Assembly: GCA_040954595.2 (NCBI GenBank)
Contig: CM082594.2
Coordinates: 9,490,296 to 9,554,295 of the forward strand
Origin: Balanoglossus misakiensis
Taxonomy: Eukaryota; Animalia; Hemichordata
Reading direction: 5' to 3'
Length of the DNA: 64,000 nt
Positions within the stretch are counted from its first letter, which is position 1. Every line of letters begins with the position of its first letter. The notes beneath the pieces are model-generated. The model saw only the letters and a program-made list of their open reading frames with translations. It did no database searches and had not been told where the DNA came from. Of the stretch, positions 2,515 through 40,089 are shown piece after piece. Position numbers and translations under genes: made by a program.

Positions 2515-2593
2515 GATAATACCCATCGGAGCCGATGGATGCTCTTAGCGTTTGTAGGTTTATGTTTTCTGGCAGCCCTGGCAGAAGGACAAA
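2500..2593 (+). CDS. Collagen exon 1, signal peptide [31 protein letters not shown]
   Basis: GCCATG start context, N-terminus like COL1A1 MFSFVD, hydrophobic core, phase-1 donor A|GTGAGT. Confidence 0.9.
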
Positions 2594-17500: not shown

Positions 17501-20500
17501 GTTATGAGGGTTAATTTTGTGAAAGTGTTTCAATGAATGAGAATATCATCATTTCTATTTTTAATATTTTTCCCTGTAGCTGACAAGGAGTTAAACGTGA
17601 TCGACACAGATATAAAAGTAGATGAGCCACCTGTCGTTGAAGAAGGCAAACCATCAAATCCTATCGACTTTGACGTTGACGTGACTTCTGACCCAAGAAG
17701 TGACGACATCGATGGTGATGACTTGTGGAAAGTGAGAACACTACTGAGTTCGACTCCCGACGGACAAACAGACCGAGATATCCTCAGCGAAGATGTGTTG
17801 CCCCCAAGAGACAAAGACAAAGACCTGCCGTCGGACTCAACTATCACTTTTCCCGACCTGAATACAAATGTGGACATGAGAAACAAAGACTGCGATGAAG
17901 CCAAATACTTCTGTGTTGAAATGAGCAAAGATGACAGAGCCAATCCTGATTATGCCATGACAGGACGACCTGAAGATTTGGTAGACTGTGTACCTCTGGA
18001 CTGTAAAGAAGGTATCTATCATTTTTTCTTGCCAAATGCTGGTGCCAAATTTCCTTATTTTTGCACATTTTTCTCTCATTTTTCCTTTATTCCTCATGCC
18101 GAGTATTTTCAACTGTGAATATTCATCTGAACTTTATTTTTTCGTATTTTCCAGAGGATAAACCTGTCAATGTGGTCGAGACAGACCTAACTCCTCACAG
18201 TAATTATCCAGTCAAAGAGGGATCGCCGAACAACCCAGTTGATTTTGACGTACAACTGGAGTCTGATCCGACGGGAGGCGACGCAGACGGAAACAACCTG
18301 TGGAAAGTGAAAACGTTCACCAGTTCGACACCAGATGGTCGCAACGACAGAAATACGCTTGACGAGCAGACCCTGAGGCCGACTCAGTCGGATCAAGATT
18401 TGCCTGCCGGCGATTCCACAACCTTTTACAACCTGCGAGCAAACGTGGACATGACAACTCTGAAGTGTGGTGAAGTCGACTACCTGTGCGTAGAAGTCCA
18501 AAAGGAATACAATGCTGATCCTGATTTTGACTTGCAAGGAAGTCTTGTGGACTGTATACCCTTACGGTGCACTAAAGGTTTGTCTGTTGCCATGGGGACG
18601 CGTCGATTCTACCAGCCCCTCTGCTAGTGGTCATCTCCTCTGCCCGCTTAGTTTGGGTCTGACCTCGGCGCCTTCAGTGGTGTAGTTAGAGAGCCACACA
18701 ATATTGAGAAATTGGAGGAGGTTTAGGAGACAGGGTTTCCACTGAAAGGGCTTTCCTCCATCTCTGCCAATCGATCAAAAACGCTTCTGATGTTTTTATG
18801 TATGCTAGTATCTTGGTACAGCAGTTTGTGTCCTCTATATCATTGCTTTCCAAACTCTGATGAGCACTCTGGTTCCAACCCCTGAAACTTCTTTTCAGCC
18901 CCCATCCACTTTTGTCGTCTGTGAAATTGGCCAAAGGTGCCAGATCCTCTTGTGTCACTCCCATCATAGAATCACAGTTTCTACACTGCTGTAGACTGTG
19001 AAGTTCTTTTACCAGCTCCTAACCACTTGCAGCATACGGAATCGTGGTTCTGGTGAAGGTTCTTTAAGTGGTTGAGGCACCCTTTCTTTTCCATTGATTT
19101 CACATACGGAGGTCGCTCTTCCGGATCTGTAGGCCTTTCTGCATACATTTACATTCCCACCACTGACTTCACCACTGTGTCCTCAGACTATACACTTTCT
19201 GTCACTTAAATCTCAGACAGGTGAACTTTTCAGCACTGTGCCAAGTGGTATCCATGCTCGAAAGAAGATGGTCCTACTGCATGCAGAGATGATCGTACAT
19301 GTACTTTGTTACAAACACACACATCACACATTCCCCTCCCCCACAAACAGCTGAGTATTACCGTGCATGCCTCCACTGTAGACAACACAATTTTGTCTTG
19401 CACAACATTCCACGTTTAGTCACAACACAGGTTCCAACAACTGCAGCATCGATGGGCCACCGCTATTACTGTGAAACCGTTTTTCTCTTTACAGTGTGTA
19501 TTTTCAAAATGTTTTTAAACTGTTGTAAATCATTGATAAGTTTTTTGACTGTTTTCAGTTGTCACCTAATCTGTTTTGTCTTCTGCTTTTTTTTCATGAA
19601 ATCTGATTATCAGGAGGTGATACGGTGAGTAATTTCATCATTTTCAACGCCATAGTGATTTTCCTTTGCTGTTGTGATAAAAGTCATTAGCAAAAACGAA
19701 AATGTAGATAGATTTGTAGAGTGGACAAAGAACATTGGAATAATGATGATCAGTTAAAGATCAGATTTTTGCCATAACTTGCATGTGGTTTGATTGGCAT
19801 GATAATTTTCATTTGGATGGACTGGACAATGCCAATTTACTATTGTCACAAGCATTTTCATTTTTATTTTCATGAAGACATTGGTTTTAATTGGCATGAA
19901 CATGCATGTCTGTTAGAATGTCTTTTGATTGCTGTGAAAGTGTTTAGTGTTTTGCATGATGAGGCAGTTTCCTTTTAAACCATGTTGAGTTACTATGGTT
20001 ACTCAATCAGTTGCCATGACAAAATTGCCTTGTTTGCTAGCGAACAATCTTGTTGCGATGACAACAATGTAAGTTTCAACAAAAACGACAGCATTTACTT
20101 TGTGATCCATCTCTGAGCAGAATTTTATCAGCATGGCTATACACTCAAATTGATTAGTTCAGAAAATTAAATTTGATAAACATGACATTATTTTTTTTAC
20201 CTTAATTAGCATGATTTGATTAGCATGACGTTGATTGATTTGATTTTGCATGACAATGAGTTTTTCATCTTGATTAGCATGACATCAGTTGATTTGATTT
20301 GATTTGTTTTGACAAATTAATATTGCTATGACAACAATATAGCGTACAATTTGCATGTTATTGTAATTACAAATGATTGAAATTGCTCCAAGTTTCTTCT
20401 GTTTGATCTACATTACAATTATGTTAGTTTGATGGTTCTGGTATACGAAACCCCCTGGACACATCATATACGTTTAACCAAATCTATCCGAAACTCTGGG

Positions 20501-23500
20501 TAACTTGTGGGTGGAAAATGTCTGCATGGGAAGTGTCTTGGGGGTAACCGTCTTGATTGATTCAAAGAATATCTCCATGACATACACAATTAGGAAAGTT
20601 TGGTGCCATGGTAACAATGTGGTTCCATGACAACAAAATGGTTGCAACGACAAACAGTTTGACTGGCATGACAAAGGGTTTATAGGACATCAGTGACGAG
20701 GTTTGCATGGGGTTTGATTGGCATGACAACAAACTTATTTTGTTTGGCATGACAACAAACAAGTTGATTTACTGCACAAGATGATTGCCATGACAACATT
20801 CAATTAGATTGCCACAACAATGAAACATATTGATTGCCATGACAATTGGTCTTGTTTGATTGGCATGACAACATATACCTTTGATTGCTGTGACAATGTA
20901 CTATTTGATTGCCATGACAACATTTGTTTCCAATTATTTTATCCACTTGGCAGCCTGATCAAGGAGAGAAAGGAGATCCAGGTGAAGTGGTGAGTGTCGG
21001 GTGAAATGCCAAAAAAAAAAAAAAAAACTAAAAAAATATGAAGTCTGTGTTTTCAGTTATTGTCAATGGATAAAATATGCATACACAATCTCAGGTTGGG
21101 TGGTGATACGAGATATGTTCTGATCATTCTGTCAGAACACATTACTGCCCCAGTGCATTTAACTGAATATTCTTCCCTCTCCTTCCTATACACACATATC
21201 AAATCAACACCCACCTTCCCCAGACATCAAACCAAGACAAATATGCCAATACTTTCCCCTCATATCAAACCAAGCCTCAAAATACACCCCCTGAAAAATC
21301 AGATCATATCTCTCACCACATGGACGTGCACCAACCTAGATTGATATGTATGCAAACTTGCACTGCTTTGAATCACATAATGACATTTCTTGGGATAGGT
21401 GAAAGTTTATTACAGCATTACTGTTGTGCAATCCACATTGCCAGTATTTTACGTTTTTTTTACAAATTACATTCTCATAATTATACAAATTATGATACAA
21501 TGTGCGTTGGACAACAGTGTTTCTTTGAAAGATGTTGACCTCTATGTCTCTTGTCTTTTGTCACAAATGATCCCTCAGTCCTTGTCATCAACTCTATAAC
21601 CATTTCATCATCAAGTAATTCCTTATTTTCCAATTCCATATACCTATAGTACAACTTCAAATCAGCAATGCCTGCAACTTTTTTGATATTTTATGTCAGT
21701 ATTTTGCTCCCTATAGCAACATGCATTTCAACATGCTTCAAAGAGTAGAACATTTAATATACATGTATGGGGGAAATACAACAAATACGACATTCGATAT
21801 CAAAAAGTTACAGCTGGCTCCCATCTCTTTAATGTGTGTGAAGTATAAAAACCTGTTTATTAAAAGAAATCTGTCCTTACTAGAGAGGTGTCCTGATTAG
21901 AGTGGTTTCTATAGAAAGATGTGTTCTTTGTGGTTTCTTTGTGGGAAAAAATAATACCTGTTTCAACAACAGTTTGGTAGTACATGCTTCAATGTGCACT
22001 GCTGTAAACTGAAAGTTGATGTTTTATTTTTTCAGCCTGATGGAAACGGACCAATTGGTGAACCAGGAATACCAGGAGAGACGGTAAGTCTTTTCCTAGA
22101 TTTTGATGAAATCTGCCCTCATCTTTTTTCCATTAAACACTTGGGGAATGCCAAGTTTTTTTTTCCATGGAAAATTCAAAACATTGAGACAGCTTCATTT
22201 GTTTTAGCCATCAATACAAGTTCTTTATTCTGCAGTTGTTAGTCGTTTGAAATTTGAAAACTATCTGTGACCTGCAATATGACACAACAGCACTGAACAA
22301 CAATTTTAACATTTTCTGTTTTAGGGCCCAAGAGGACCAGCAGGTTCCAGAGGCCCATCAGGACCACCCGGACCTCGAGTAAGTAAAATCCTCTCCTGGT
22401 TTCGTTTTAACGGTATTTGCTCATATTTTGCTAACTATGTCAAATACATGACTGTACAATGTATGTAGTCAGCTGCAGTACAAAGCCTTCAAATTCTATG
22501 CAACTCATCTTAGAAGCTGCTTGGCGAATTAAAATGAATCACTTTGTTCGTTTCCTTTGCAGGGTGACCAAGGTAATCCAGGACGAGATGGCAGACCAGG
22601 TCAGCCTGGACCACCAGGCCCACCCGGACCCCAAGGTATTGGATCATCACCCTCAGGTGGCGGTGAGAAAGGTCCCGGATTTGGCCAAGTTCAACAACCA
22701 GTTGCTATGATGCCAGGTCCTTCTGGACCAAGAGGTCCCACTGGCCCTCCAGGTCCAAGAGTAAGTATACAAGGGGCAAAGTTGCTCTCTTTTTGGGGTA
22801 TCTTGGTTTCTTTTGATATACATGTACATTTATATTTGTATAAGTCATTGTAATATTAGAGTGCGATTTACAATTGAAGCAAATCTCACGGTTTTGGCTG
22901 GCATGTTGTAAACCACACAACTTGAAGACGCGTATATGCTCTGAGGCATAGCACCAGGCTAATTTATAAACATCGTCAGAGCCATTTTGCAGACACACCT
23001 TCACTAATTTTGTTCCACCATGAATTTCTCCAAGTCTAGCGTTGTTTTTAAACCGTTAATCTAGCAGGGAACATGTCATTAACAATGACTTTTTCCTTGC
23101 CCAACAGGGATCACAAGGTTTTGCCGGTCCACCAGGTGAACCAGGAGAGATGGGACCACCAGTAAGTATATTTTTCTTGAGAATCTTTTATTTGTTTAGG
23201 CATATTGGGTTATTTTATACCCGGAAAACTTTCATATTTTGATATTGTAATAATAACCTATATCAGTGAGGGCTTGTTTATGGGCCTTAAATATTTGTAC
23301 ACATCACAAAAGCGAAAAATGCAAAATTGATCAGTTTTTAATGATTTTTTTCTGTAGGGTTTGATGGGTCCTCGCGGTCAACAAGGTCTTACAGGTGATC
23401 CAGGTGAAGAAGTAAGTGAAATTCAACTTTTTAAAGTGTAAATGAGTTTAAAACTGTCATATGCACATGAGTGATGATTCAAGCTTTGATAATCATTGGC

Positions 23501-26500
23501 TTTGCATGTTACTGTAACATCGTGGCACTTTCACAGTTTAAATATATCCTGTTGCTTTCCTAGGGTGAACGTGGTGAAGATGGTAGACCCGGTCCCCCAG
23601 GTCCAGTTGGTCCCCAAGGTGGGCGTGGTTCCTCAGGACTTCCCGGAATGCCAGGACCTAAGGGTCACAGGGTAAGCTGTATTCTTATCCTTTGATGATG
23701 TGGAAACGTGAGCTTAAAATGATGTGCTTTATGCTTATTAAAAGTATTGGGTGTGTACCCGGTAATGCTATTTTGGATATGAGCCCTGGCGCTTTGTATT
23801 TAAAATTCACAGCGTTCAGTGTTTGCTCTGTCTACAAATGTAGTTTGTCTGTGCAAGGCATTCAGGGAAATGGGAACTTGTAGTTGTCACTGATGGTTGA
23901 TTCTTTTGTTTTTATGTCACCAGGGTTGGAATGGAAACGATGGAAAACCAGGTGAGGCAGGAGCACCAGGAGATCGGGTAAGTCCTAATTAACCCTCCCC
24001 CCCCCCTCCCACTACTAAAAGTTAGTTCAGTCCACATTGTTTGCAGTGGAATTTGTGGAGCATACACATGAAAATGGGGGGAGACTGAATTGCATGTCGT
24101 CTGCAGTATTATAAACAGATAATACTAGTACATATATAAATCACCAAAAGTTGTACTACTAATTTGAAAGTATCTGATTACTGTTACTGTCATGAACTTG
24201 TTGGATGTGCTTTTCCAATCACTTTGAAATGCTGTGAAGCACAGTCTCTGATACATTACCCTGATGTAGGTATCTTGAGGATCGTGACTGAAAGTTCACA
24301 GCAAAAAATTGTTTTTGTTTTAGAAAGTTGTCTTGATAAAAAGAGATGGTCTTGATGACAAGCTTACAGGATAACTGTCAAGTGTTTAATATTTTGATTT
24401 TGTTTGGTTACAGGGTGAAAGTGGTTCCCCTGGACAATCAGGTTTACCTGGACAACCGGTAGGTGCTGAACTTTGGAAAGAAGTTCATCCATGCAGATCT
24501 ATCGAGAAACAATGCCGTTGATTGGATTAATTGACTGCTGTGAAATCCTTTGATTGGGCCAATTTGTTGAAATACAGGATCATTTATGGGCCTTGGAATA
24601 ATGTTAGAATTTATGTAATAGTTTTCAAAAGGGATAGTATTTAATATAATGTTTTTGATACATTCACTTGTAGGGATCAAGAGGATTGCCAGGCGAAAGA
24701 GGAAACCCAGGAAGTAATGGAGAACCTGTAAGTAACAAATGTCCCACCTTAAGTTAGCTTTTATGCCTCTGTATATATGAAGATTTGTGATCATTTGATT
24801 ATCATCAACTTTAATACAAAACAGACTTGAGAAAAGATATAATCACTTTGCAAATCACTACCAGATTTTTCCCTTGGCCAATAGTCTGCATAAAGAGAAC
24901 TGTGATTGAAATATTACCCGGACAAACACTGTGATGTGTGTGATACTGACAATTAAGACATAAAATGTATCTTTTCTTGCAGGGAGCAAGAGGATCTGAT
25001 GGCCCACCTGGAGCTTCAGGACCACCGGTAAGTACAATCTGTCAACAGAAAGGGTTCGTTGTCTCACAGCTGAATGTGCCTTGTTTTGGTCTGACCTTTG
25101 TGATAATTAATCAACTGCATAATATTCATTCATAATGTTTGTACTAATGTTACTTGCTTGTAGTTTTGAATGAGTTCTTCGTGTCTGGACTGTTTTTAGG
25201 GATCACCAGGTCAGTCAGGACAACCAGGATTTCCAGGCAGTCCAGGAGCAAAGGGAGAATCAGGAAAACCCGGAAACACAGGTCCATCCGGTCCACAAGG
25301 TGCCAGAGGAGAGGCTGGTCCAGTCGGTCCACCCGGATCTTCCGGTCAAAGAGTGAGTAACGTTTGAATTTAACAAAAGCAGCAATGTAGGTTTACTTAG
25401 CAGTGAACAGTTAAATGTTTACTAACTGTTTTTTTATGTTTGATTTCTGTGAAATGGAATTTTTAATCAGACACCCTGGAACCTGTGTACATTAGAATTT
25501 TTTCAATGAATATTCTATCTCTCCCTATTAGGGTCCACCTGGTGTAAATGGCGTTCCCGGAGGCAAAGGTGAAACTGTAAGTATAAATGATCATTGCTGT
25601 ATCCTGTCAGTACGTCACTTTGTAATACTGTGCTTTATATCACAAAACTATGCTGTCAGATTATTTTGTGGTACTATTTTAAACTCAAAAATATTTTGGA
25701 TGCCATGCACTCATAAGACAAAATATATCAATTATTAATTATCAAATTCTCTCTTTCTTTCCCAGGGTTCTTCAGGTATGCCAGGTTCACCTGGTTTTCA
25801 AGGACCACCTGGCGCACCTGTAAGTACATTATATCTCTTCCTGATTGGCTCGATTTCAGATTTTTTATCCTCTAAGGATCACTGCATTGGCTGTTAAACT
25901 CAAAACTTGATTTAGTGGGTTACAAAGCTTGTACATGTTCAAGAATGGTGTGCTTTTTTCACTAACTTGCTAACAATTATTATTTTTCTTGTGTGATTTC
26001 AGGGTATTGCAGGAAGTGCTGGTCCAACTGGAGCCAAAGGTTCTCAGGTAAGCCTGAAATATGAACCACTTTAATAATAAACCACTGGTGCTGTGAATGG
26101 ATCCTTATCTTTGAAGTCACCGTAATTCACATTTCATGACAACATATTGACTGTGTTCGTCTCAAAAAATAATTGAAACATGCACATTTTTATCGATAAA
26201 TTTATGGCAAAACGATTGATCTTTTTATTTTCCAGGGAGACCCAGGTATTAGTGGAATGAAAGGAGAACAGGGCCCATCTGGTCTGCCAGTAAGTACTCT
26301 ATTGATTTTATGTAGATATTTATGACCTTACAAGAATTGAATATAGTCTGATCACGATTTCTGTTTGCATCCACCATTTTGAATTGATATTTTCGCTTGT
26401 TCCTCCATGGGTAACTTTAGAGGGGTCAGACTTGCAAGTTTCAGACAGAGCAAGAAGAAACTTTTCGTATTTTGTCTGTATATATAATCATCAGTTAGTG

Positions 26501-29500
26501 AATATAATCAGTGCTATGATGTGGTTGTGGTATTGTTTAATATAAATAAGTTTTTCAATATTTCTTCTAATTAAAACATAATTTTTTTCTCACCAGGGTA
26601 ACCCTGGTCCAAGAGGTTTGTCAGGAAACCCAGGAGACGATGGCAAAAGAGTAAGTCACTGCATGATTATATCAATAGTTCTCTCAACACTTCTTTTTTT
26701 ATTTTTCAGTATTTCTATTTGTATTTTATATTTCTTAAATTTTCATCTGCGATATGCAATGACAAATTAATTTTGTATTTTGTTTCCAGGGAGACCGTGG
26801 TGATCCTGGTCCACCAGGTGCAGCAGGTGCCCAGGGAGAATCTGTAAGTATAACTCTCTCACCACTATGGTTTAGTCCAAATCCATTGTTTTCTATGGTA
26901 AAGTTGGACCTCTTAAGAGGATACTCAGAGAAGATAATCAGAGAAGACTAGTAAATTTGTTTGACGTTACATTGTAACTTTCTGTTTTGGTAAATTACCA
27001 TGGAAACCACATCAATACCCTACATATTTTGCTGTTTCCTCTAGGGATCTCAAGGTTTACCAGGTTTCCCAGGACAGCCAGGTAGCGTTGGACCAAAGGT
27101 AAGATTTAAATAGAATCCTGTATGCAGATGTTATCATCAGACTTTTCACCGCAATCAGTTTAACGAATCCCCTATACAGGCAAAAACACATGCCTATTCT
27201 ACAGCCCACACTCCAACAACAAAACATATGCTTGACTTTCTATCTCTGTCTAGCTTTCTCATCCTCATGTCAATCATTTTGTCGTTTCCAGGGTGACACT
27301 GGAGATAGAGGCAATCCAGGTCCATCAGGTCTGAAGGGACCCGCTGTAAGTAAATGGTTTCTACCTGCTCACTAGTTTATACTTTAAGTAAAATTCTTTA
27401 TCCCAGATTCCTGGGTTACTTTAAAGGGGAAACATGGTTTATTCCAGATTGACAGTTTTCTGAAAACCAAAATGAACTCATTAGAACATAACAGTGAAAT
27501 AGTTGCGCAAAAAAAATACGCTAACATTTTTCTGTGATTTTGCTATTTATGGATGGAGACAATAAACATCCGACAAACATGGAAATAAAAGAATTATTTA
27601 GGTTACAATTTACACTTTCATATTTACAGGGTGACACAGGAAGACAAGGACCACAGGGTATGCCTGGACCAAGAGTAAGTTGGCTCACTGTATTATCACT
27701 CTATGCACGAAAATGGTTCAATTATTGGCATATATGAGAGAAACGGTGGAATTAACCAAAATTTTACAACACTGGTAATAGTCAGAATTGCAAACTAAAA
27801 CAGAAGTGGAAGGTGCAGCTGATGTATTTCGATGCAAATTGATTCACCTCAGCAGATGCGTACCAGATAATTATTTTTCATGAAACAAAGTTTGTGAGAT
27901 GTAAGTTTTGTTTGAAATCAGAGATTCCTCACAAGTTGTGTGTCTTTAATTGGTATGTTGAGTGTATCGCTTGAAATTTTGATATGGACGTTTCGTTTAT
28001 GTTTTGTCAGGGTATGACAGGCGCTCCAGGTAAAGATGGCCAACAGGGAAGAAGTGGTGCTCCAGGTATTCCTGGCGACGATGGACGAGCTGGAAGTGAA
28101 GGAATGCCTGTAAGTCCAAGTGATGATAGAGGAGCAATCAACAACATTTTCACTTTAAAAAAACCACATGCCAATAGTGCTAGATGTATGTGTGTATATG
28201 TACAATGTGTGTATGTTCCTTCTAACTGTAACATCATCTTCTTCAATTTTTCTTTAGGGTCTGCCTGGCAAGAGTGGTATTATGGGTATGCCTGGTCCCA
28301 AAGGTCCTCAGGTAAGACATCTTCAGAACGACATCATGTGGAACAATTATAGTCTGAATGTTGTGTAGGATATTCTCAATTATCCTCATCAGAATTTCAT
28401 TCAGTGCAGTTTGTAATCCGTTCTTTTCTATCATTTACTTATAAATCTGATGATATTTTTTTTTTCCATTTAGGGTGACCCTGGCAAAGATGGTTCAACT
28501 GGTCAAACAGGTCCCAGAGGAGCAAGGGTAAGGCAATAAATGTTAATGCAGATTTTGAGGGTTTATTATAATTACAGAGAAGTCATATGGAGTAGGTACA
28601 GACTGGAAGAAGTTCAGTATGCGCGCACAGTTCAGTATGCACTTATCGTTTATTTTACTCTGTTGTTTTCCGGTTGTATGTAGGGAGAGCCCGGCAAAGA
28701 TGGTGATCCCGGACTTCCAGGTTTGGTGGGACCCCGTGGTGCAACTGGTGAAAGAGGTGCTCCTGGTGCCGCTGGTGGTCAAGGTTCTATGGGTCCATCT
28801 GGAATGCCAGGTGCACCTGGTGAAGCCGGACCGGCAGGAGAAGCAGGTGTTCAGGGTGATGTGGGACCACCTGGTCCAGCAGGTCCAAGGGTGAGTGATT
28901 GGGTTTACTTGTCTATACTTTTGATATTCCAAAGTTCACTGTTTCAGAATTTTTGTTTCCATTTCTGATCTTGACCAGTATGTGCTGTTTTGCAGATATT
29001 GTGAGAAAATCTAGGGCAATTTGAGCAGTCGCTAGAATTTCTTTTTTATACCTCTCAATGGAATCTCAACATGAGGGATTATTTTCACTGGTTATTCGTA
29101 ATTTTGTTTTGGAAGACACCCCTATAACAAAATATGTTGTCATTAGACTTTGCCTGATTGGACGTGTTCTTAGTCAACTTATGTTTAAAATAAACTTGAG
29201 GTTCTGATATTTAATTGTCTCTGATTTACACAAAATTTATGATTATGTTGTAGGGCATCAAGATATTTTGTCTACGTGCTGCTTCGCAGCAATTCCAAGG
29301 GTAGTTGACAGTTGTCAATTCTCTTGCACCAAGCTTTGCAAATTTGAGAACACACCCTTTTTCTTTATTTTGCCAGTCATTTTAAATAGGACCAGCAACC
29401 TTGCTTGTGGGTTTGCATTTTCTGAAGAAGTCAACACAGTGTGATATGCAAACCCCTTGAACAGAATTCAGGTTTTATTTTTTCATTTTTCCCATTCTGA

Positions 29501-32500
29501 CGTTTAGGGTAGCACAGGTCAGCAAGGAGATCGAGGTCCATCCGGCGCGAGAGGACCTCGTGGCGCACAAGGTCCACAGGGTGACAGAGGAGATGATGGC
29601 GATAAGGTCAGTGGCGGAGGGTTATATACTTCTTATCATTCCACAATCACTCATATGTTGTTTGTACTGTTTGTACGTACAGGGTGAAAGAGGTTTTCCG
29701 GGAGACAGGGGGCGAGTTGGTGCCACTGGAAGACGTGGCCTTCCGGGATCAGCCGGAGAGGCCGGTGCAGAAGGTCAAAAGGTTGGCTAACAACTGCACT
29801 GCATGCACTAACTTTGTACACTGCATGTAAACGTGCATGTGCATGCATGGAAACACGATGGGAATACATTATGTCAAACTCGCATTTATCATTGTACAAA
29901 GTTTCAGGACTATGTTTTGGGTAGAAATTTTGGCCACTGTGAAAAGTTCCCACGTTGCACAGGACGGCAGCTAACCAACTAACCAGCAGAAACCAAAAGA
30001 CAGAATTCATTGAATACCAAGCGAGGACTGCACTGAGCTTCAGCGATCAAAAATATCCAACTCCTGGCTAGCAATATTTGAATCCAGCCATGAAAAGCGT
30101 GATTTTCAGAACATCAAACTTTAAGAACTGAAAATTGCGAAGGAAAGCCCACTGAAAACTGCATGTCTATTTTCAAAATTTATGAAAAATGAAAATTGCA
30201 TGTTGTCGTCAAGGTGAAGACCGAAACACAACCATTAAATGCATGTCCGTTGCCATGGAAAATAGATTACTGCATGACTGCAGGGGAATAAACGCCAATG
30301 AAAATGCATGTCATTGGTCAAGGGTACAATTCGTCTATCTCTCTTCCAGCTTGCATTATTACATTGTTCTTATAATGGTAGAGGGGTAAAACATTTTTAT
30401 CCACCAAACCTTTGGTGGACTTTTGCAGCAATATATCTATGCAACAAGATATGTTCAATCAGTGATGTAGATAGATAAGCTTTGTAAGAGTGAAGAAGAA
30501 ACTATAGTTGATACACAGAGATCAAAAACCAAACCTTGTAGCTGGTTATATGGCAAGCACAGCAGGCATTCGACATTGTGACCAGCTAATACAATAATAT
30601 CTACATCACTGATTCAATTATGGCAGACGGGCCTCGCATTCTCATTCTCAGTTACTTCTGGATGTTATTTTTCCTCTGAAACATTATGATTATGCATGTG
30701 TTTACAGGTAGAGCAGTAAGATTAAAATATCTTGTGAACTTTACTTCCATTGAAAACAGTGCAGAGTTACTTTTTTCAAATGTCTCTTTATAAATAAGTT
30801 TTCTGGTTTTTCTTCATTTTCTTTTTGATCATGCACTACAACAGGTGGTGTTCACTGCTTATGACTTGTCGCATGTTGTGCCTTGTCCAATACGGTAGTG
30901 TTAGTTGCACATTTAAAGTCTTTCTTCTTCCGTTTTCTCCTTTCTTGAAAACAGGGTACATCCGGTGCCCCAGGTCTACCAGGTAAACAAGGCGACATGG
31001 GAATCCAGGTTAGTTAGTAAGCTTTCATTTACAAGTAGGTTGCTTCAACAGATGGCATAGTTGTTTTGAATAGAGAACATATTGTATATCTTGATGACTG
31101 AAAAGTTTCAATGCTTTAGAATGTTGGGCAGATCATGAAGAGAGTCCTCTAGCCCAAAATCATACCTTCTTCCCCAGAGAAAAAAATACTTCAAAAGTTG
31201 ATGAGATCAGCTCTCTCTGGCCAACCAAATTGGCGTTTTTGTTTCATGTCTTGAATTGAGAAGTTAACTGACGGACATTCTACTGATTCTAATAATATTG
31301 ACTAATGTGTCTGAGGCATTGATGAGTAAATATTTGATTTGATTTTCAGGGTCTGCCAGGTCCACAAGGTCTAACTGGTGCTCAAGGTTCCAAAGGAGAC
31401 GCTGTAAGTCTGAATGACAGTCAAAGTGGAAAAAAGCTCTTGATCTTTGTTCAGTGGATGATTCCAAGCTCCAGAATATATTTAGACATCATTTTGCGGT
31501 GAATTTGAACATCTTGACAATCACGTAAATTTTAGGAATTACACTCAAACCAGCAATGTTGTTCTGACCAAAACAGCAAACACTGTAGTGTAAATCAGCA
31601 TCTGCAGTATACCGCAAATGGATTTTTTGTTTATGAAGTTCCACATTTTTATTTGACAGGGAGATTCAGGTGATCCGGGTCCATCCGGTCTGCCAGGAAG
31701 ACCAGGCAATCCAGTAAGTAGAATTTAAATTTTATGGAATTATCCAAGTGAGAGTTACAAAGCAGGTCTCATCTCCTGCAAGGATTTTGCGTGCCATTTT
31801 GTCTGGAATATTTTGGGTGTCTTTACAATACATGACAAAAAGTTGTCCTTTCTTCCCAGGGTCCAAATGGTCCAATAGGTCCAGCCGGTCCCACAGGTCC
31901 ATCAGGAGACAAAGGAGCACTGGGTCCAGCTGGTGCTCCAGGCCCAAGAGGTTCCAGAGGAGAAACAGTAAGAGCCTTTGTTTTCTTCTATTGATAATTT
32001 GCTTGTCATAAGGGTGGCCATTTTAGTTTGTTTTAAAGTTATACATGTATGTCTCCCATCATCTGCGCTTTGGCAAGCTGGCTGAAAAATGAAAATACTT
32101 AAAACAGCTATGTTTGCTAATTAAACTTGGTTTTGAGGGGTGACTCACAATCCCTCGGGGTTACAGACGTATGCTGTTGCCCTCATGGCCTGTCAATATG
32201 TGTATACTGATCACCAACCCATGCCAACCAGGCCATCATAAAAATGTCTGTTGTTTCTTACAGGGAGAACCAGGAGAGCCAGGCAGACAAGGTCAATCCG
32301 GAGACCCAGGCCCATTGGTAAGTATAACTACTTATTTTATGGCAGTGTTTCCTCACATATGAAAAAAAAAATCAACATTTTAGTGAATGTTAAATGATCT
32401 GGGGAAAATCACTAAAAGATGATCTTATTTTTGGAAGTGCCTGTTAATTTGTGTATTTCTAATTTGTATTTATAGGGAAGACCGGGAAGTCCCGGAAGAG

Positions 32501-35500
32501 CAGGCAGACCAGGAGAACCAGGACCCAAGGTAACATTCCCAAATCTCTGTCAACTGTCTAGTTTTGTGAAATGTTTCATAGCACAAGTGGAAAAGCGTCT
32601 GATTGTGATTTTACCTTGAGTAATGTAATGAATGTTTTTTGATTGGTAGGGTGAAGAAGGTGAAGCAGGTACACCAGGTGAACGTGGAGATCAAGGAGAA
32701 ACAGTGAGTACCTTTTCAATTTCTGAAAAAATCTGGTCTATTTTTACCATATAAAGGATAAAATTAGCAAAAAGTTACAAGTTTAACGATCGCTATGGAG
32801 ATAATCCCATGTTGACAATTTCTTTTATCAGGGTGACCCCGGTATTGCTGGCGAGAAAGGAGATAGAGGAGATCGTGGTCTACCTGTAAGTGCATTTTAC
32901 TTCACTTTCCTGTCCTCTGTCTGTGCCTTCTTTGCGCACTCCATTTTCATGCTTCAATACAATGCATTCCTGGAATGTTCCCTGATGTCTAACCACTCTT
33001 TGACAATCCTTAAAATGTCCTGGAAAATTTGAACTCATCCTTAAAAATACTGGAAAATTGATCCACAAAAACATTTGTGATGCACTTATTACATGCTCGC
33101 AACATTTTGAACTGAAATACTCCTGGAAACACCCCTGAAACTGGAATATGTTTCTTTAGTATTTTTTTTAGAATGATATGAATCATTTGATTGTGCTTTT
33201 TCTTTCTAGGGTCCACTTGGCGGTACAGGTCCGAGAGGTGTTCCTGGTGCTGAAGGTACTGTGGTAAGTTGAACAGTCTGTTTATACCTTTAATATTATG
33301 ATTGATCATCACAATGATCTTTACACACAAGAGATTTTCAACAGGACAATTCAGAGATACATTTGAGCAACTTCGTGAGATTTCTTTTCAGTGTTGGACA
33401 TGTGTCTAACAGAATGACCTTTGTTTTCTCTCTAGGGTCCAGTTGGTGAGAAAGGAGATGCCGGAGAACCAGGTCTAGCTGGTGCCAAGGTATGGAACAT
33501 TTTTTGTCAGACATAACCTGGTGGCCCGCCCTGACTATATACTTCTGCAGCTGGAAGGCTATCCTCAGTGAAACATAATGATACAAATGTTCTGTATTCT
33601 GTCTCTCATTTGCTGTGTTCCAGAATATGCAGATACGTGTAGTTCATCATCATTTATCAGTGCTTTTGAAGTACATTGTAGCCATGCAAAACTTCCAGAT
33701 TTGACATTGTTTTGTCCTGATTCCTTAGGGTGAGCCAGGTACAGATGGAGATCCCGGAAGACCCGGACCTGCCGGTGATCCAGGTTTGGAAGGACCGCTC
33801 GGACCAAAGGGAGACCCAGGAAAAGATGGTAAAGATGTAAGTATATCTATTTTTAACCATTTCTGTACAAGAATGAAAAACAAGCCTCAACAACATGTAA
33901 TCATTAATAGTTCTGAATTTCACCTCTAACTTTGTGTCTTTGTTCTTCATTTCAGGGTACACCAGGTACTCCTGGACCATCAGGTATTGTAGGAAATCTC
34001 GGAGGACCGGTAAGTCTGCAAAGTTTCACTGATGAAAATTCAGTTTTCGTAAACATTATCATGACAAGAGAGAACCACCGGTGGTGTGCGTGTTGATCTT
34101 TTTTAGCCCTTTTCTGATTTAATTGAGTCCAAATCATCGACATGATCCCAGGTCACGGTCGAGGACCTCACCATATCCTGTCACATCTTAACAGAGCATG
34201 TAGATCCAGGTTTTCTTTGATTCTATATTGTTCCATTCCACCTCAGCAATGCTATGACTGTGTGTGTAACTGTTTCCATTTTCTCTTCTAGGGTCCCGCT
34301 GGTCCCAGAGGTCTTTCAGGTCAAAAGGGAGAGCCTGGCTCAGCAGTGAGTATCTCACCTTTAGTCAAATGATCATTGCAATCCGTTCTAATATTATTCT
34401 GATTATGATAATTATATAATTATACTTTAATTATTTTACCAGGGTGAACAAGGCAAGAGAGGAGCTCCTGGTCCCGTGGGTCAATCTGGTCCAACAGGTC
34501 AATCAGGAGCCCCTGGTGCTCCTGGTAACCGTGGTGAACCAGGTCCAGAGGTAAGATTTCATTTTGGGCAGCTTCTTAAAGTTGCCTACTCTGTTGGTGA
34601 GATAAATGCTTTTGCTCCTGTCATACTCATGTAGTGTTGTGTGTATTTCAGCAGAATATGAATGAAAAATTAAGCGTTTGTCAGACCAGTTTTCGTTGAT
34701 AGGATGTAGCTTCCATCAGAAATAAATTTCTGTGGCAATGAAAGACTCTGTTGTTCCTAATTGTGTTTTTCACTTGATTGTAGGGTCCAGCTGGTCGGGA
34801 TGGTATCCCAGGTTTGGAAGGACAACCAGGTGGTAAAGGTGATCGTGGTCCATCGGGTGCCCCAGGTGCTAGTGGTATGCCAGGCCATATGGTGAGTATA
34901 TGCAGAAGCGTGGAATCTTAAGTTTGTCGCAAGATGTACTTCTGTTTTCAATCTTGCCTATATGTCTATGGTTACCGCATATCCATTAACTGTTGGATAC
35001 CATCAAGGCAACATCACAAGCTTTCCCATAAATCAAGCCTCAGTCCTCATCTTTGAGCTCCCAGCTGAACATAAGTTTAAATCTTCTTATTTGCAGGGTC
35101 CTCCAGGTCCAGCAGGCAGTGATGGTGCCCCTGGTGGTGATGGTGATCCAGGTGCTCCAGGTCCAGTTGGTCCAGAAGGTCCAAGAGGTGCAAGGGGTCC
35201 CTCTGTAAGTTGACTTGAATGTAACATTCAAACCACCTCAACCCCATCTCTACCATGAATGATTGACCAAACCTTGGCTCATTTCGGCCAAATTGCCACT
35301 TCAGTTGGGTTCTTTTGGCCAGGCACAAATATAGGCTACATGTTATTATACATGTGACATCATACTTTGTCTCTTTTCAGGGAGAAAATGGACTTCCAGG
35401 TCCTACAGGTGCGACAGGTCCAGCTGGTGCTAGAGTAAGTATAGACAGGATGCAATTCTTGGAAAAAAATCCTTATTTTTCACTTTTTTAGTTAATAGCC

Positions 35501-38500
35501 CCTGATACATGATCTGTTAACGTAGTACGTCGCGCCTCAGAAATCAGTTATCAAACTATGGAATCAAGATGTGCAGAAAATTAATCTGTTTTCTTCTTTT
35601 CTTTCTTTCTTCAGGGTACCAAAGGTCATCGTGGTTTCAATGGTATGCCTGGTAACCCAGGTATTTCTGTGAGTACCCACAATACATCAGTCATTTACAT
35701 TACCCACAGTGCATCAGTCATTCACACGGTTATCAAAACCGTTTTTCACCTGGGTGCTGTCATTGCACAGCTTCAACAATACCATTGAAATTTCCATTTC
35801 CAAAAGTGCAAAGATGCACTATGATTTGTCACAATTTTCACTATTCTGATTGGACCTAACACCTGTATTTTCATGCAGGGCGCTGCTGGTGAGAATGGTG
35901 CTCCTGGACCACCTGGTCCACCTGGGCCACGGGTAAGTCAATGCCTTTCTCTGTGTTTTTTATCAAAGTATACAAGCTCGATGAATTGTCACAATTTGAA
36001 GTTAACTAAAATATGCCTAACATCATACGTAGCACACATTTTATTCTTAGACGTGTGAAAATTTTTCATTGGTAGTGAACTAATGTCTTTTGAGAAAATG
36101 AGAGGCAACGACTCTTAATTATGATGTGTATTTTTTGATATAGGGTGAATCTGGTATCAGAGGTCCACCTGGAAGCAATGGTAAAGATGGACAGATGGGT
36201 CCAGGAGGTCCACCTGTAAGTGAACATTGATTGATTGATTTATTGATTTATGTGCATTTACTACATGTTCACCTCATAGATCACAAAAATTGAGTATTTT
36301 AATTGTTATCCATTTAATTATTTTCTAGGGTTTGAGAGGAGCTAGAGGTGACAGTGGAGATGATGTAAGTAAACGTATCTGAATATTAAAAAAATACTCT
36401 GCAGTTTCTATCAGTCCAAAACAGACATCCGGTATCCCAAAACTGTACAGTAAGAAACTTAGACAAAAATGAAGACCAAAAATTTCGCACAACTTCTTTG
36501 CAGTAAACCAACCATTTATCTAGTTTGTTTGCAAATAGCTCATTTTTTCTTGTTATCTTTTTTGTCCTTCAGGGTCAAGTTGGTCCCCCAGGTCCACCCG
36601 GTCCACCTGTAAGTATTATGTCTTTGCAAATTCATCACACAATGATTTTAGGTAGTATGCGTCTTGGGAACAGTTATGTTATGTTTAGACACAATTGCTC
36701 ATAGCAAAAGCATTTTACTGACGTAACCCTTTTCTGGACTTTTTTTTCTTTCACACAGGGTCCACCTGGTTCCGTGGTGAGTACGATTTCCTTTTCTGTC
36801 ACCTGCAGATTTTTAAAGTGAATTAAACCAGATATCCCCACAAATTTGTGGAGAGACGTTGGGAAACAAATCACATCAATTCAGTATCACAGAGTGTCTG
36901 TTTTATACATACTAGTATCTTGTAACCAATATTAAACACGTATGATGGTGAAATGTCCTATGTCATAAAAACATTACTGATTGTTATTGTTTAAAACGGG
37001 ATGAAAATACTAATCATTCGTACATCTTACAATGTTTTGTGCTTCTTTCACACAGCCTGAGTTCAGACAATATCCAGCTTACTTTTCCAACTACGGAGGA
37101 GTCAAAGGACCAGTAAGTGTGATTTCTTTGTAACTCTCGACACATTACATTTTCACCTCTCAAACTTCATAAAATAACAGCGAAATGCTTGAAATACAAA
37201 ACACGACTAACATGTTTTGTTTGGGTTTGTTTGTTCACTGTAGCAAGGAGACCAGCCACTTCCTGATGGTGAAGAGTTCCAAGCCGACAGCATTTCTCAG
37301 AAGTTGCACGACATCGAAGTTATGGCCTCACTGCAGTCACTTAACGATCAAATTGAGTCGATTCAGAGCCCAACTGGAACCAAGAAGAACCCTGCTAGAA
37401 CCTGTCATGACCTTGCACTCTGCCATCCAGATTGGCCAAGCGGTGAGTGTCTTAATTTTATCTTCCCTCTAATGCTTGCCTGGTTTAACACACAAATGCT
37501 GTCAGTCAAGAATTCATTGATTAATGTTAATTGATTATATTTGTTTGTTTGTTGATAGGTAACTATTGGATTGATCCTAACCAGGGATGTGCTGTTGATG
37601 CTATTGAAGTATTCTGTGACTTTGAAACCAAGGAAACTTGTGTGTATCCAAGGAAAGCAGAGGTATGTAGATGTTTGTTTTGAATATCATGGTTTTCCAA
37701 ATAATGTAATATTATTAATTAATTAATGTAATCACACAAGAAGTTAGCTGTAAACATAATTTTTTTGAAAATTGACCTCTCTGTTGTCTTAACCAAACAC
37801 ATATATATATATTTTTTTAATTTAATCCAGGCTACCCGTAAGAACTACTACACAGGACCGAGTAAATATGTCTGGTTTGGTGATAGCATGAAAGGTGGAT
37901 TCCAGGTATGAAAATGAATTTTAATTTAATTATAATTATTTCTTATATGATTCATTACCTTATGCTGATATTTTAACGCTTCATTGAAGTGTATTTACAT
38001 ATACAGTATCATTAGATACCTAAAACTCTCCTCAGATTGTGTTTGACATTCTCAAGACATTGGATTGGTCCAAATATTTTCCACCAACAACACTGACATT
38101 GGATTGGTCCAAATATGTTCCACCAACAACACTGCATCATGGGAAATATCACAAGAATCAGTGTTTGATATACCGGTACAGAAGAAATTCAAAACTCTGA
38201 AAATATTCTGAAAGACCTGACAGCTGCCGTCCCTTCAATCCCAAAAGCAATCAGACCATTTGAACCGCTTTCAATCTATAATTTACATTTTGTTGTTCTG
38301 ATTTCAGTTCACATACGACATCGAAGTTGTCCAGTTTACATTCCTTCGTCTTCTGAGTACAAAAGCTAAGCAAAACGTCACCTATCACTGCAAGAACTCA
38401 GTTGGATATTACGACGCAGAGAATGATAACTTGAAGAAGGCTGTGAAGTTCCTTTCAGACGCAGATGTAGAACTAGTTGCAGAGGGTAGATCTCGCTTCC

Positions 38501-38942
38501 AATACGATGTCCTCAAGGATACATGTACAGTAAGTAGAACTTCAAGATTTGTGACATGTCCATCCTGATCTTACATCCTGGCATTTTCATTTGCATGAAT
38601 CTGCTATTTTGATTGACAGTGAGTTGCCGCTCGACTGAGGTTCTGGCAAAAGTTTGCATTTTCAACCACTTTTTTGAGATTTATTTGAACACACAACAGT
38701 GTTCAGTTCTGCATCAAGTCTGCTGATCAGACAAACGACAAAATTTGTAGATTTCAGCTACTTATTCTTGCGTGTTTTATTCACTTCTTTTACAGTTACA
38801 CAACGGCGAATGGGGAGAGACAGTGTTTGAATACTCATCACCCAAAACAACCCGCTTCCCGATAGTGGATATAGCACCCATTGACATTGGTGGTGACGAT
38901 CAAGAATTTGGTTTAGAAGTAGGACCAGCGTGTTTCTCATAA
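2500..38942 (+). CDS. Fibrillar (clade A-like) procollagen alpha chain with VWC + 6 SURF modules, similar to sea urchin 2alpha/5alpha chains; ~66 exons, ~2,340 aa
   Basis: Continuous spliced frame from ATG 2500 to TAA 38940-38942 through GT-AG introns. Contains a signal peptide, VWC, six 4-Cys modules, 45/54/99/108-nt Gly-X-Y exons, two KGHR cross-link motifs and a COLFI domain. Confidence 0.95.
12287..12307 (+). CDS. Candidate 21-nt symmetric microexon (T)NISPRA(G)
   Basis: Long pyrimidine tract plus CAG acceptor, CAG|GTGAGA donor, phase 1-1, open frame between exon 1 and the VWC exon. Confidence 0.6.
14108..14308 (+). CDS. VWC (chordin-type cysteine-rich) exon of the N-propeptide
   Basis: [55 protein letters not shown], with the CxxCxC and CCxxC motifs. 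201 nt, phase 1-1. Confidence 0.92.
15033..15458 (+). CDS. SURF-like module 1 exon
   Basis: 426 nt, phase 1-1. 4-Cys pattern G..LW...C...YLC...C...C. Flanked by AG and GTAAGC. Confidence 0.85.
15619..16044 (+). CDS. SURF-like module 2 exon
   Basis: 426 nt, phase 1-1. GTDLWKL...CEDVPYFC...CAAIPC. Confidence 0.85.
16296..16727 (+). CDS. SURF-like module 3 exon
   Basis: 432 nt, phase 1-1. GDDLWKL...CDEAKYFC...CVPMDC. Confidence 0.85.
16884..17315 (+). CDS. SURF-like module 4 exon
   Basis: 432 nt, phase 1-1. Near-identical to module 5. Confidence 0.85.
17580..18011 (+). CDS. SURF-like module 5 exon
   Basis: 432 nt, phase 1-1. Differs from module 4 by 2 aa (T>K, T>A). Confidence 0.85.
18155..18577 (+). 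CDS. SURF-like module 6 exon
   Basis: 423 nt, phase 1-1. GNNLWKV...CGEVDYLC...CIPLRC. Weak donor AAG|GTTTGT. Confidence 0.82.
19614..19624 (+). CDS. 11-nt microexon (G)GDT converting phase 1 to phase 0
   Basis: CAG|GAGGTGATACG|GTGAGT after a pyrimidine tract. Needed to join the phase-1 SURF exons to the phase-0 minor-helix exons. Confidence 0.78.
19781..20925 (+). repeat. Degenerate intronic array of GATTG(G/C)CATGACAAC-like units, rich in GCATG and X-box-like sites
   Basis: 17 GCATG counted by eye in ~1.1 kb, plus several TTGCCATGACAA variants. Confidence 0.7.
20954..22760 (+). CDS. Minor triple helix, N-telopeptide and helix start exons
   Basis: Exons 20954-20989 ([12 protein letters not shown]), 22036-22083, 22325-22378 and 22563-22760 (...[35 protein letters not shown]). 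Confidence 0.9.
23108..28890 (+). CDS. Major triple helix exons equivalent to vertebrate exons 8-30
   Basis: Exons 23108-23161, 23358-23411, 23564-23671 (KGHR), 23924-23977, 24414-24458, 24674-24727, 24983-25027, 25200-25352, 25532-25576, 25766-25819, 26003-26047, 26236-26289, 26597-26650, 26790-26843, 27045-27098, 27292-27345, 27630-27674, 28011-28109, 28258-28311, 28474-28527, 28684-28890. All phase 0 and starting with Gly. Confidence 0.93.
26850..26915. mobile_element. Degenerate copy of the short piggyBac-like MITE family
   Basis: ATGGTTTAGTCCAAATCCATTGTTTTCTATGGTAAAGTTGGACCTC matches the reverse complement of the element at 54526-54618. Confidence 0.6.
29508..29606 (+). CDS. Helix exon '31A' (99 nt), putative mutually exclusive: [33 protein letters not shown]
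   Basis: TTTAG acceptor, AAG|GTCAGT donor, 11 perfect Gly-X-Y triplets. Confidence 0.88.
29683..29781 (+). CDS. Helix exon '31B' (99 nt), putative mutually exclusive: [33 protein letters not shown]
   Basis: TACAG acceptor, weak AAG|GTTGGC donor, 11 triplets. Homologous to vertebrate exon 31 (GERGFPGER...GAK). Confidence 0.9.
29800..30700 (+). promoter_or_regulatory. Intronic splicing-regulatory cluster (TGCATG x11, ACTAAC x2)
   Basis: TGCATG at ~29800, 29822, 29834, 29840, 29844, 30160, 30197, 30240, 30271, 30305, 30693. ACTAAC at ~29807 and ~29978-29985. Confidence 0.7.
30955..36776 (+). CDS. Major triple helix exons equivalent to vertebrate exons 32-49
   Basis: Exons 30955-31008, 31350-31403, 31660-31713, 31860-31967, 32264-32317, 32476-32529, 32650-32703, 32832-32885, 33210-33263, 33436-33489, 33729-33836, 33956-34009, 34292-34345, 34443-34550, 34784-34891, 35097-35204, 35381-35434, 35615-35668 (KGHR), 35879-35932, 36144-36215, 36329-36364, 36573-36608, 36759-36776. 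Confidence 0.93.
37056..38942 (+). CDS. C-telopeptide and COLFI C-propeptide exons
   Basis: Exons 37056-37112, 37244-37442 (FQA-D; [12 protein letters not shown]), 37559-37662 (YWIDPNQGC), 37831-37905, 38308-38529 (QFTFLRLLS...QNVTYHC), 38796-38942 (...[10 protein letters not shown]). Confidence 0.95.
38056..38133. repeat. Two-copy intronic tandem duplication (~38 nt)
   Basis: GACATTGGATTGGTCCAAATAT(T/G)TTCCACCAACAACACTG occurs twice. Confidence 0.85.
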
Positions 38943-40089
38943 ACGTCATGTTTGAACTGTAAAATTTCAACAGCTGCTATCTATGTTGCAGTGACCTTAT
39001 ACTCAGATCAAGATTTGTCTTGAAATTTTACAGCTGTATAATATTTTTATCATCTGACCATGGTGTTGCTGAAATAAAGCAGAATTTTTTTCAACCAATA
39101 TTTCTAATGGTGCTCAAGATTATTAAGTTTTAGGAATAGTGAAAGACAAACTGTTTTGTACAAGTTTTTTAAATGAGATTTTATGTAATCTTTTTAAGAA
39201 GTTTACATTTCCCTTTCGGTATTGGTGCTAGTTTTTATATTATCTGGATTTCAAATGGTGCTACAATAGAGCCTACCTCTAATATTAGAGAAAAAAAAGA
39301 CAAAAAATTATTGTGAGCATGAACCTGTACTACTACGAATGTACGTGACCATTATATGTGTCATTATAAAATGAAAGTTTCAGGCAAAGTTGGGAAAACA
39401 GTGGTATTCTGTAATGTAGGAAATTGTTTGACACTCAGAGAATAGAGAAGGTGACTGGTTCAGATTGTGATACAGTTTTTCATTTGATGCAAATTTGGAC
39501 AGACAAAGATGAAATGTGAACAGATCTTTTGAGGTTCCAAGAACGAAAGCAACATCGACGAGGTTTGTCAAATGAATGCGACCGTGTAGAGTTCAGATTC
39601 ATGCACAGACGAAGTTGCTATTTTTATAAAATCAACGAGGAAAAATACATTTTTGAGGACCATTATGACAATATTTGATGTACTTGTTTGTTTGATTCTT
39701 TGTACTTAATTATCAAACGCTGTTATGACGTCCCAACAAGTCTTTAACAGGGTTAACAGGGTTCTGTAAGTTAAAAATAGTTCCAGTGTTTCACGTCTTC
39801 TCAGAGTGTTTACAAATTTGAAGAAAAAAATGGCTGCATTTTTAAATTAAATCATTTTCCAGTAGTTGCCTGGGGTTGCATTTTCTGTGTCATATTGTAT
39901 ACTGGCCTCAAATGACGTGGCCTGAATTTTTTAGGACAGCAGGAATTTCTTATGTAGATGTTTTCATGTCATCGATACCCCACAAGCCAATCGCTTCATT
40001 AAATATTGTATTTTATTGTAAACACTTGTATTTTCAAACATTGGCAGACTTACTTTGACTTGATTCCTTGCTATTTTCCAAGTCTATCA

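Follow-up and report, generated by a model that had tools for sequence, protein, structure and literature searches.

A tandem pair of 99-nt Gly-X-Y exons in the major triple helix of an acorn-worm fibrillar collagen gene is probably spliced as equal-length alternatives

The window, a stretch of 64,000 nt of Balanoglossus misakiensis DNA that contains no N, holds an entire collagen gene, which a six-frame scan places on the + strand. The N-propeptide exons (2539..22715) encode a signal peptide (2539-2593), a VWC domain (about 14110-14310; Pfam VWC 43.9 bits, over the cut-off), six SURF-like exons (15033-18577) whose modules measure about 140 residues and hold four cysteines each, an 11-nt micro-exon (GGDT; 19614-19624), a minor helix and the N-telopeptide. 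The major triple helix (22716..36776) is built from 47 exons, all of them with AG/GT borders, and it is followed by the C-telopeptide and C-propeptide exons (37056..38943), which carry a COLFI domain (Pfam COLFI 90.5 bits, over the cut-off). The four-cysteine modules are read as SURF modules because they match fibrosurfin at about 30%; the nearest protein is XP_070535949 from Ptychodera flava, which is 72% identical across the first SURF module and has nearly the same signal peptide. The attributes of an A-clade chain are present: an uninterrupted helix of about 1014 residues when one of the two exons described below is used, together with COLFI, VWC and a minor helix. The domain order, the VWC domain, the exon lengths of 45, 54, 99 and 108 nt and the resemblance to the Saccoglossus row that bears the label COL2A1 in file S1 of PMC10381214 suggest that the chain is an A-clade fibrillar collagen.

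Within the helix, exon A (29508..29606, +, donor AAG/GTCAGT) and exon B (29683..29781, +, donor AAG/GTTGGC) lie side by side between a 207-nt helix exon upstream (28684..28890, +) and a 54-nt helix exon downstream (30955..31008, +, donor CAG/GTTAGT); the introns are 617 nt before A (28891..29507), 76 nt between A and B (29607..29682) and 1173 nt after B (29782..30954). As the original prediction stated, both exons are intact: each is 99 nt long, bounded by AG and GT, begins with GG and encodes 11 Gly-X-Y triplets free of stops, at helix positions 496-528. The two exons are adjacent, both are in phase 0, they are equal in length and they encode one and the same slot of homologues, which is the arrangement expected of tandem-duplicated mutually exclusive exons. 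Between them, 53 of 99 nt and 5 of 22 non-Gly residues are identical. A had been described as divergent, without Phe and with a different charge pattern, and this description is borne out: A has a net charge of 0, an acidic cluster at its C-terminal end, no large hydrophobic residues, Pro confined to X positions and one RGD, while B has a net charge of +2, contains Phe, Val and Leu, and carries two Pro at Y positions, where hydroxylation is possible. A PDB search with B gave ambiguous matches, as expected for repeats. A scan of the introns from 20955 to 37113 turned up no additional hidden Gly-X-Y exon.

The major helix of fibrillar collagens is regarded as a fixed ruler of 338 triplets. Joining the 47 helix exons reproduced the counts given beforehand, with 338 triplets (1014 residues) when either A or B is used and 349 when both are; skipping both leaves 327, and the 338th triplet is Gly-Ser-Val. 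The two KGHR motifs, which presumably correspond to the vertebrate cross-linking lysines 87 and 930, stand at helix positions 84 and 927 in a one-exon chain, 843 residues apart; inclusion of both exons moves the second to 960 and widens the spacing to 876, and omission of both narrows it to 810. In the Acanthaster protein P0100 (XP_022088426), the KGHR motifs also stand at 84 and 927, with the same spacing of 843 as in the one-exon chain. Similarly, Saccoglossus, a crinoid and human COL2A1 and COL3A1 each show a single 11-triplet unit between flanks that match those of the window (PMC10381214 file S1). None of the aligned rows carries a 33-residue insert, as follows from the human row, where the gap at the slot spans just 3 columns; the rows are single gene models, in which isoforms are invisible. 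Scoring of the D-stagger placed 234 among the top two values for A and for B and outside the top eight for A and B together, but 234 is near the top with neither exon as well, at a z of about 2, so the scoring does not discriminate.

The slots of homologues bear on the origin of the pair. The claim that B is the ancestral-type exon agrees with four A-clade slots, which share 6-8 of 22 non-Gly residues with B against 3-4 of 22 with A: human COL2A1 (7 with B, 4 with A), Saccoglossus (6 and 4), the crinoid (8 and 3, by eye) and P0037 (6 and 3). The Acanthaster slot goes against this trend (3 with B, 4 with A), and twelve type V/XI slots average 6.3 with B versus 1.7 with A, a comparison that is biased, since a B-like pattern was the basis for choosing these slots. 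A keeps Arg-Y3, Asp-Y10 and Lys-Y11, a pattern that, with Asp or Glu at Y10, was found by eye in five of six A-clade slots. Between A and B, all 22 bases at positions 1-2 of the Gly codons match, against 26 of 66 at the X and Y positions. Because the X/Y divergence is near saturation and yet every glycine is intact, A was under selection; in simulations of neutral decay, none of 5000 runs kept 11 glycines without a stop when all of the change was placed on A, and 2 of 5000 did so when half was, a result that bears on past selection on A and not on its current use. A is thus an old tandem duplicate that selection kept as collagen, at least until recently. No closer source of A was found in the gene or the window, the best candidate in the gene matching 59 of 99 nt against a background of 46.8 +/- 3.9; a recent duplication from elsewhere in the gene was rejected. 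A hemichordate orthologue of the helix was found neither among 95 matches (best 66%, no acorn worm named) nor in the best 120 of 6692 matches, which were generic collagens and among which a self-match would have scored 528 bits. None of 21 metagenome loci with 39-76% identity fitted the A/B slot, and an orthologue search of low recall, which missed a query row lying within its range, returned three matches, none a collagen.

The surroundings of the pair differ from the rest of the helix in intron length, donors and intronic motifs. Among the 46 helix introns, whose median is 194.5 nt, the 617-, 76- and 1173-nt introns rank 2, 46 and 1 by length. A pyrimidine at donor position +3 occurs in just three of 46 donors, those of A, of B and of the exon that follows (P ~0.003); B has the lowest donor score of the 46 and A the fourth lowest, which is partly a codon effect because all five exons that end in AAG have non-consensus donors. 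The acceptors of A and B are normal, standing 15th and 7th from the bottom among the 46. The intron 3' of B contains 11 TGCATG in sense and 3 in antisense, compared with 3 in 8839 positions when the 43 helix introns away from the cluster are counted (Poisson 3e-12); TGCATG is the top hexamer there, shuffles expect 0.84, and none of 1000 shuffles reaches 11. Five of the sites lie within 19-68 nt of the B donor, five at 30160-30310 and one at 30693, and none of 1000 shuffles reaches five in the first 100 nt 3' of B. No repeat copy of this intron is present elsewhere in the window. UGCAUG is the RBFOX motif (PMC4165533), and the (U)GCAUG cluster in the proximal intron, by which RBFOX-regulated exons are recognised, is found behind B, making B a candidate for such regulation. 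In addition, the intron 3' of B has four CTAAC, a modest enrichment that 12 of 1000 shuffles equal, while the 617-nt intron 5' of A has no noteworthy enriched hexamer.

Introns of 76 nt are spliceable in many animals. In the one between A and B, motif matching finds a sole branch-point-like motif, 30 nt from the 3' end and about 47 nt from the donor, a motif that 9 of the 46 helix introns lack; in the steric-hindrance class of mutually exclusive exons, the distance from donor to branch point is less than 50 nt (PMC5740500). An RNA fold of 29580-29860 has a z of -3.1. RNA structure as the splicing mechanism was rejected, the donors of A and B showing no more pairing than the remaining 44 donors (ranks 24-34 of 46) and 25 of the 57 inverted repeats offering no convincing docking/selector pair. 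It has been reported that verified exon clusters of C. elegans have long flanking introns, weak sites and often UGCAUG (PMC4165533), and that the intron downstream of let-2 exon 10 promotes this exon (PMC4165533, PMC3469465). A search for papers that deal with RBFOX in amphioxus and in sea urchin returned none.

It can be seen above that the exon pair is real, and it is probably regulated; on the genomic DNA, A and B are likely to be spliced one or the other, which would yield two chains of 1014 residues that differ solely at helix 496-528. Of the switch first proposed, which was to exchange a receptor-binding segment at constant length, the either/or part holds as likely in view of the intron lengths, the donors and the UGCAUG cluster, whereas the receptor part is not supported. 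RBFOX-type proteins, perhaps together with a QKI/STAR protein, would bind the UGCAUG/CUAAC cluster just 3' of B, and the bound regulators would rescue the weak B donor in certain cell types or stages; A would be the default where such regulators are absent. This direction, in which B is activated and A is the default form, is perhaps somewhat the better bet, and it is uncertain because unc-32 of C. elegans shows the opposite, RBFOX bound downstream favouring the upstream exon (PMC4165533). The 76-nt intron, whose putative branch point lies some 47 nt past the donor, may hinder the joining of A to B, and the chances that such a steric block operates are about even. Nonsense-mediated decay would be unable to police double or zero inclusion because 99 nt preserves the frame. 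The pressure would instead fall on the protein, where chains with equal C-propeptides and 11 triplets more or fewer would form a trimer out of register with shifted cross-link geometry.

Inclusion of both exons, whether constant or with A as a cassette that can be skipped, would give a 349-triplet helix or a mixture of 338 and 349 triplets, and it is compatible with the normal acceptors of both exons, the preserved frame, the AG/GT ends and branch-like motif of the 76-nt intron, and the variation of fibrillar helix lengths, which range from 997 to 1020 residues in human (PMC2852846) and reach 1011 residues in P0100. However, the second KGHR would be shifted by 33 residues off the 843 spacing shared with the starfish, the insert is absent from every homologue examined, and a constitutive pair would explain neither the UGCAUG cluster nor the length of the flanking introns; joint inclusion is quite unlikely. 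It is very unlikely that B alone is used and A is a once-functional relic, silent or spliced in traces: B is indeed the ancestral-type copy, and the gene models examined all have a B-like or unassignable slot, but A has lost none of its 11 Gly, has the exact length and retains both splice sites although its X/Y positions have diverged almost to saturation, and a sole constitutive B would hardly be expected to have the weakest donor and 11 UGCAUG behind it. That alleles, or exons of two genes, were set in tandem by the assembly is scarcely credible given a window without N, a well-formed intron as spacer and flanks that are unique in the window; allelic mis-assembly in particular was rejected because an identity of 53 in 99 nt is far below the allelic level.

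The remaining alternative accepts that the exons are exclusive, as in the preferred reading, of which it is a sub-case, and sees their function in turning a cell-receptor site on and off, or the inverse by way of the RGD of A. The slot itself had been correctly assigned, as alignment places it at the position of GFPGER in human COL2A1. We take the vertebrate GFOGER to lie at helix 502-507 and the slot to be exon 31, an offset of +3 setting the GFPG of B (499) on 502. In favour of a receptor switch, the slot thus holds GFPGER in human COL2A1, and A is without the Phe motif and gains an RGD at helix 522. Against it, although the slot is at the GFOGER position, B shows no GFOGER site in its sequence: it has GFPGDR, in which Asp replaces the metal-binding Glu, and the alpha1 I domain has been reported to show no binding to GFOGDR (PMC3406685). 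Moreover, alphaI integrins have been reported as absent from echinoderms and lancelet and as first present in tunicates, hemichordates not being named in the accessible part of that report (PMC4237329), and five other RGD are already in the helix. A receptor function is therefore unlikely, and the GFOGER-type switch of the original prediction is not upheld. In the preferred reading of equal-length alternatives, the A/B swap is likely to act on the charge at the fibril surface, on how much hydroxyproline is present and on packing rather than on a GFOGER-type integrin site, and likely to alter local stability, packing and matrix partners.

To our knowledge, alternative splicing in fibrillar collagens is confined to the propeptides. 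Human COL5A1 has a pair which we take to be exons 64A and 64B. As here, that pair consists of homologous exons of equal length, 69 nt, in a fibrillar collagen gene (PMC5740500), but it belongs to the C-propeptide, a non-helical part that is removed, and leaves the fibril rod unaltered. Hatje et al. 2017 list helix exons of COL24A1, COL9A3, COL4A2 and COL13A1 in mutually exclusive clusters, COL24A1 being fibrillar (PMC5740500). The partner in COL24A1 is a 42-nt intronic candidate that, unlike its 54-nt mate, is not Gly-X-Y, and COL9A3 and COL4A2 are similar in this respect; just one candidate, in the non-fibrillar COL13A1, is Gly-X-Y-like. Mutually exclusive collagen exons are known from exons 9 and 10 of C. 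elegans let-2, which encodes alpha2(IV) (PMC2119826). As in the acorn worm, they are tandem homologous collagen exons of lengths divisible by three with a short intron between them, and the STAR-family regulator ASD-2 binds the intron behind the downstream exon in a stage-dependent switch (PMC4165533). The let-2 pair differs in belonging to a network collagen IV, in its 108- and 111-nt exons, which differ mainly in a Gly-X-Y interruption, in its 30-nt intron and in its proven splicing, whereas the acorn-worm pair is fibrillar, identical in length, uninterrupted, separated by 76 nt, followed mostly by UGCAUG and known from genomic DNA alone. Vertebrate COL2A1 and COL3A1 likewise carry equal-length versions of the same 11 triplets, with and without the Phe motif, but they arose by gene duplication and A and B by exon duplication within one gene. 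Within the open-access literature accessible to the search, no length-preserving exon pair in a fibrillar major helix was found; subscription papers and supplements could hold one.

The sea-urchin 1alpha and 2alpha SURF-type collagens (PMC2852846) and Acanthaster XP_022088426 share VWC, SURF modules, minor helix, major helix and COLFI with the present chain. For the sea-urchin chains, alternative splicing has been reported in the N-propeptide, and the accessible part of the same review makes no mention of an alternative major-helix exon in them or of a hemichordate SURF-module collagen (PMC2852846). Among 150 SURF-type proteins matched, one had a helix, Acanthaster P0100, and the records of 20 SURF-type proteins looked up held no collagen isoform sets. 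The P. flava models have five SURF modules and stop before the collagen part, some with VWC and some without. Meanwhile, the 11-nt micro-exon is the sole bridge found between the phase-1 signal, VWC and SURF exons and the phase-0 collagen exons, and it is included in the P. flava model P0097. The intron behind it (19625-20954) holds 7 TGCATG and 17 GCATG, with 1 in antisense, and is thus strand-biased; none of 1000 shuffles reaches its GCATG count, and the cluster is partly a local degenerate repeat. This cluster could link collagen output, or the form of the N-propeptide, to the same regulator as A and B.

A wider reading is possible and is offered tentatively: a single A-clade gene may supply the animal with two kinds of fibril, and with trimers that mix A and B chains, through an RBFOX-controlled exchange of 11 triplets in mid-rod, coupled to RBFOX-type control of the micro-exon, as a splicing route to diversity of the type II/type III kind, for which vertebrates used gene duplication, and as a case of a recurrent habit of fibrillar collagens. 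Saccoglossus has one A-clade chain among three fibrillar rows in file S1 of PMC10381214, and the swap would bear on how acorn worms, with few collagen genes, form both ordinary connective tissue and the cartilage of the gill bars. If true, a length-preserving exchange within the rod would tune the fibril with its stagger unbroken, and A and B would be a natural matched pair of 33 residues for testing the effects of charge and hydroxyproline on packing and stability. Annotation, and likewise proteomics, built on a single model for each gene would overlook such a pair.

Several minor features of the locus were also observed. A Gln/Gly/Pro-rich set of open frames on the minus strand at 53900-55100, of which one tested frame gave no Pfam match, belongs to another gene facing the collagen gene. 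The intron 3' of B contains a 20-nt inverted repeat (30454-30617) that is 95% complementary across a 124-nt spacer, and the end of the helix (36144-36776) is cut into exons of 72, 36, 36 and 18 nt, off the 45/54 pattern. The first intron (2594-14100) measures 11.5 kb, far above any other intron of the gene. The SURF-like exons have lengths that are multiples of three, with the VWC exon as the exception, and SURF modules 4 and 5 are near-identical, which is a recent tandem duplication.
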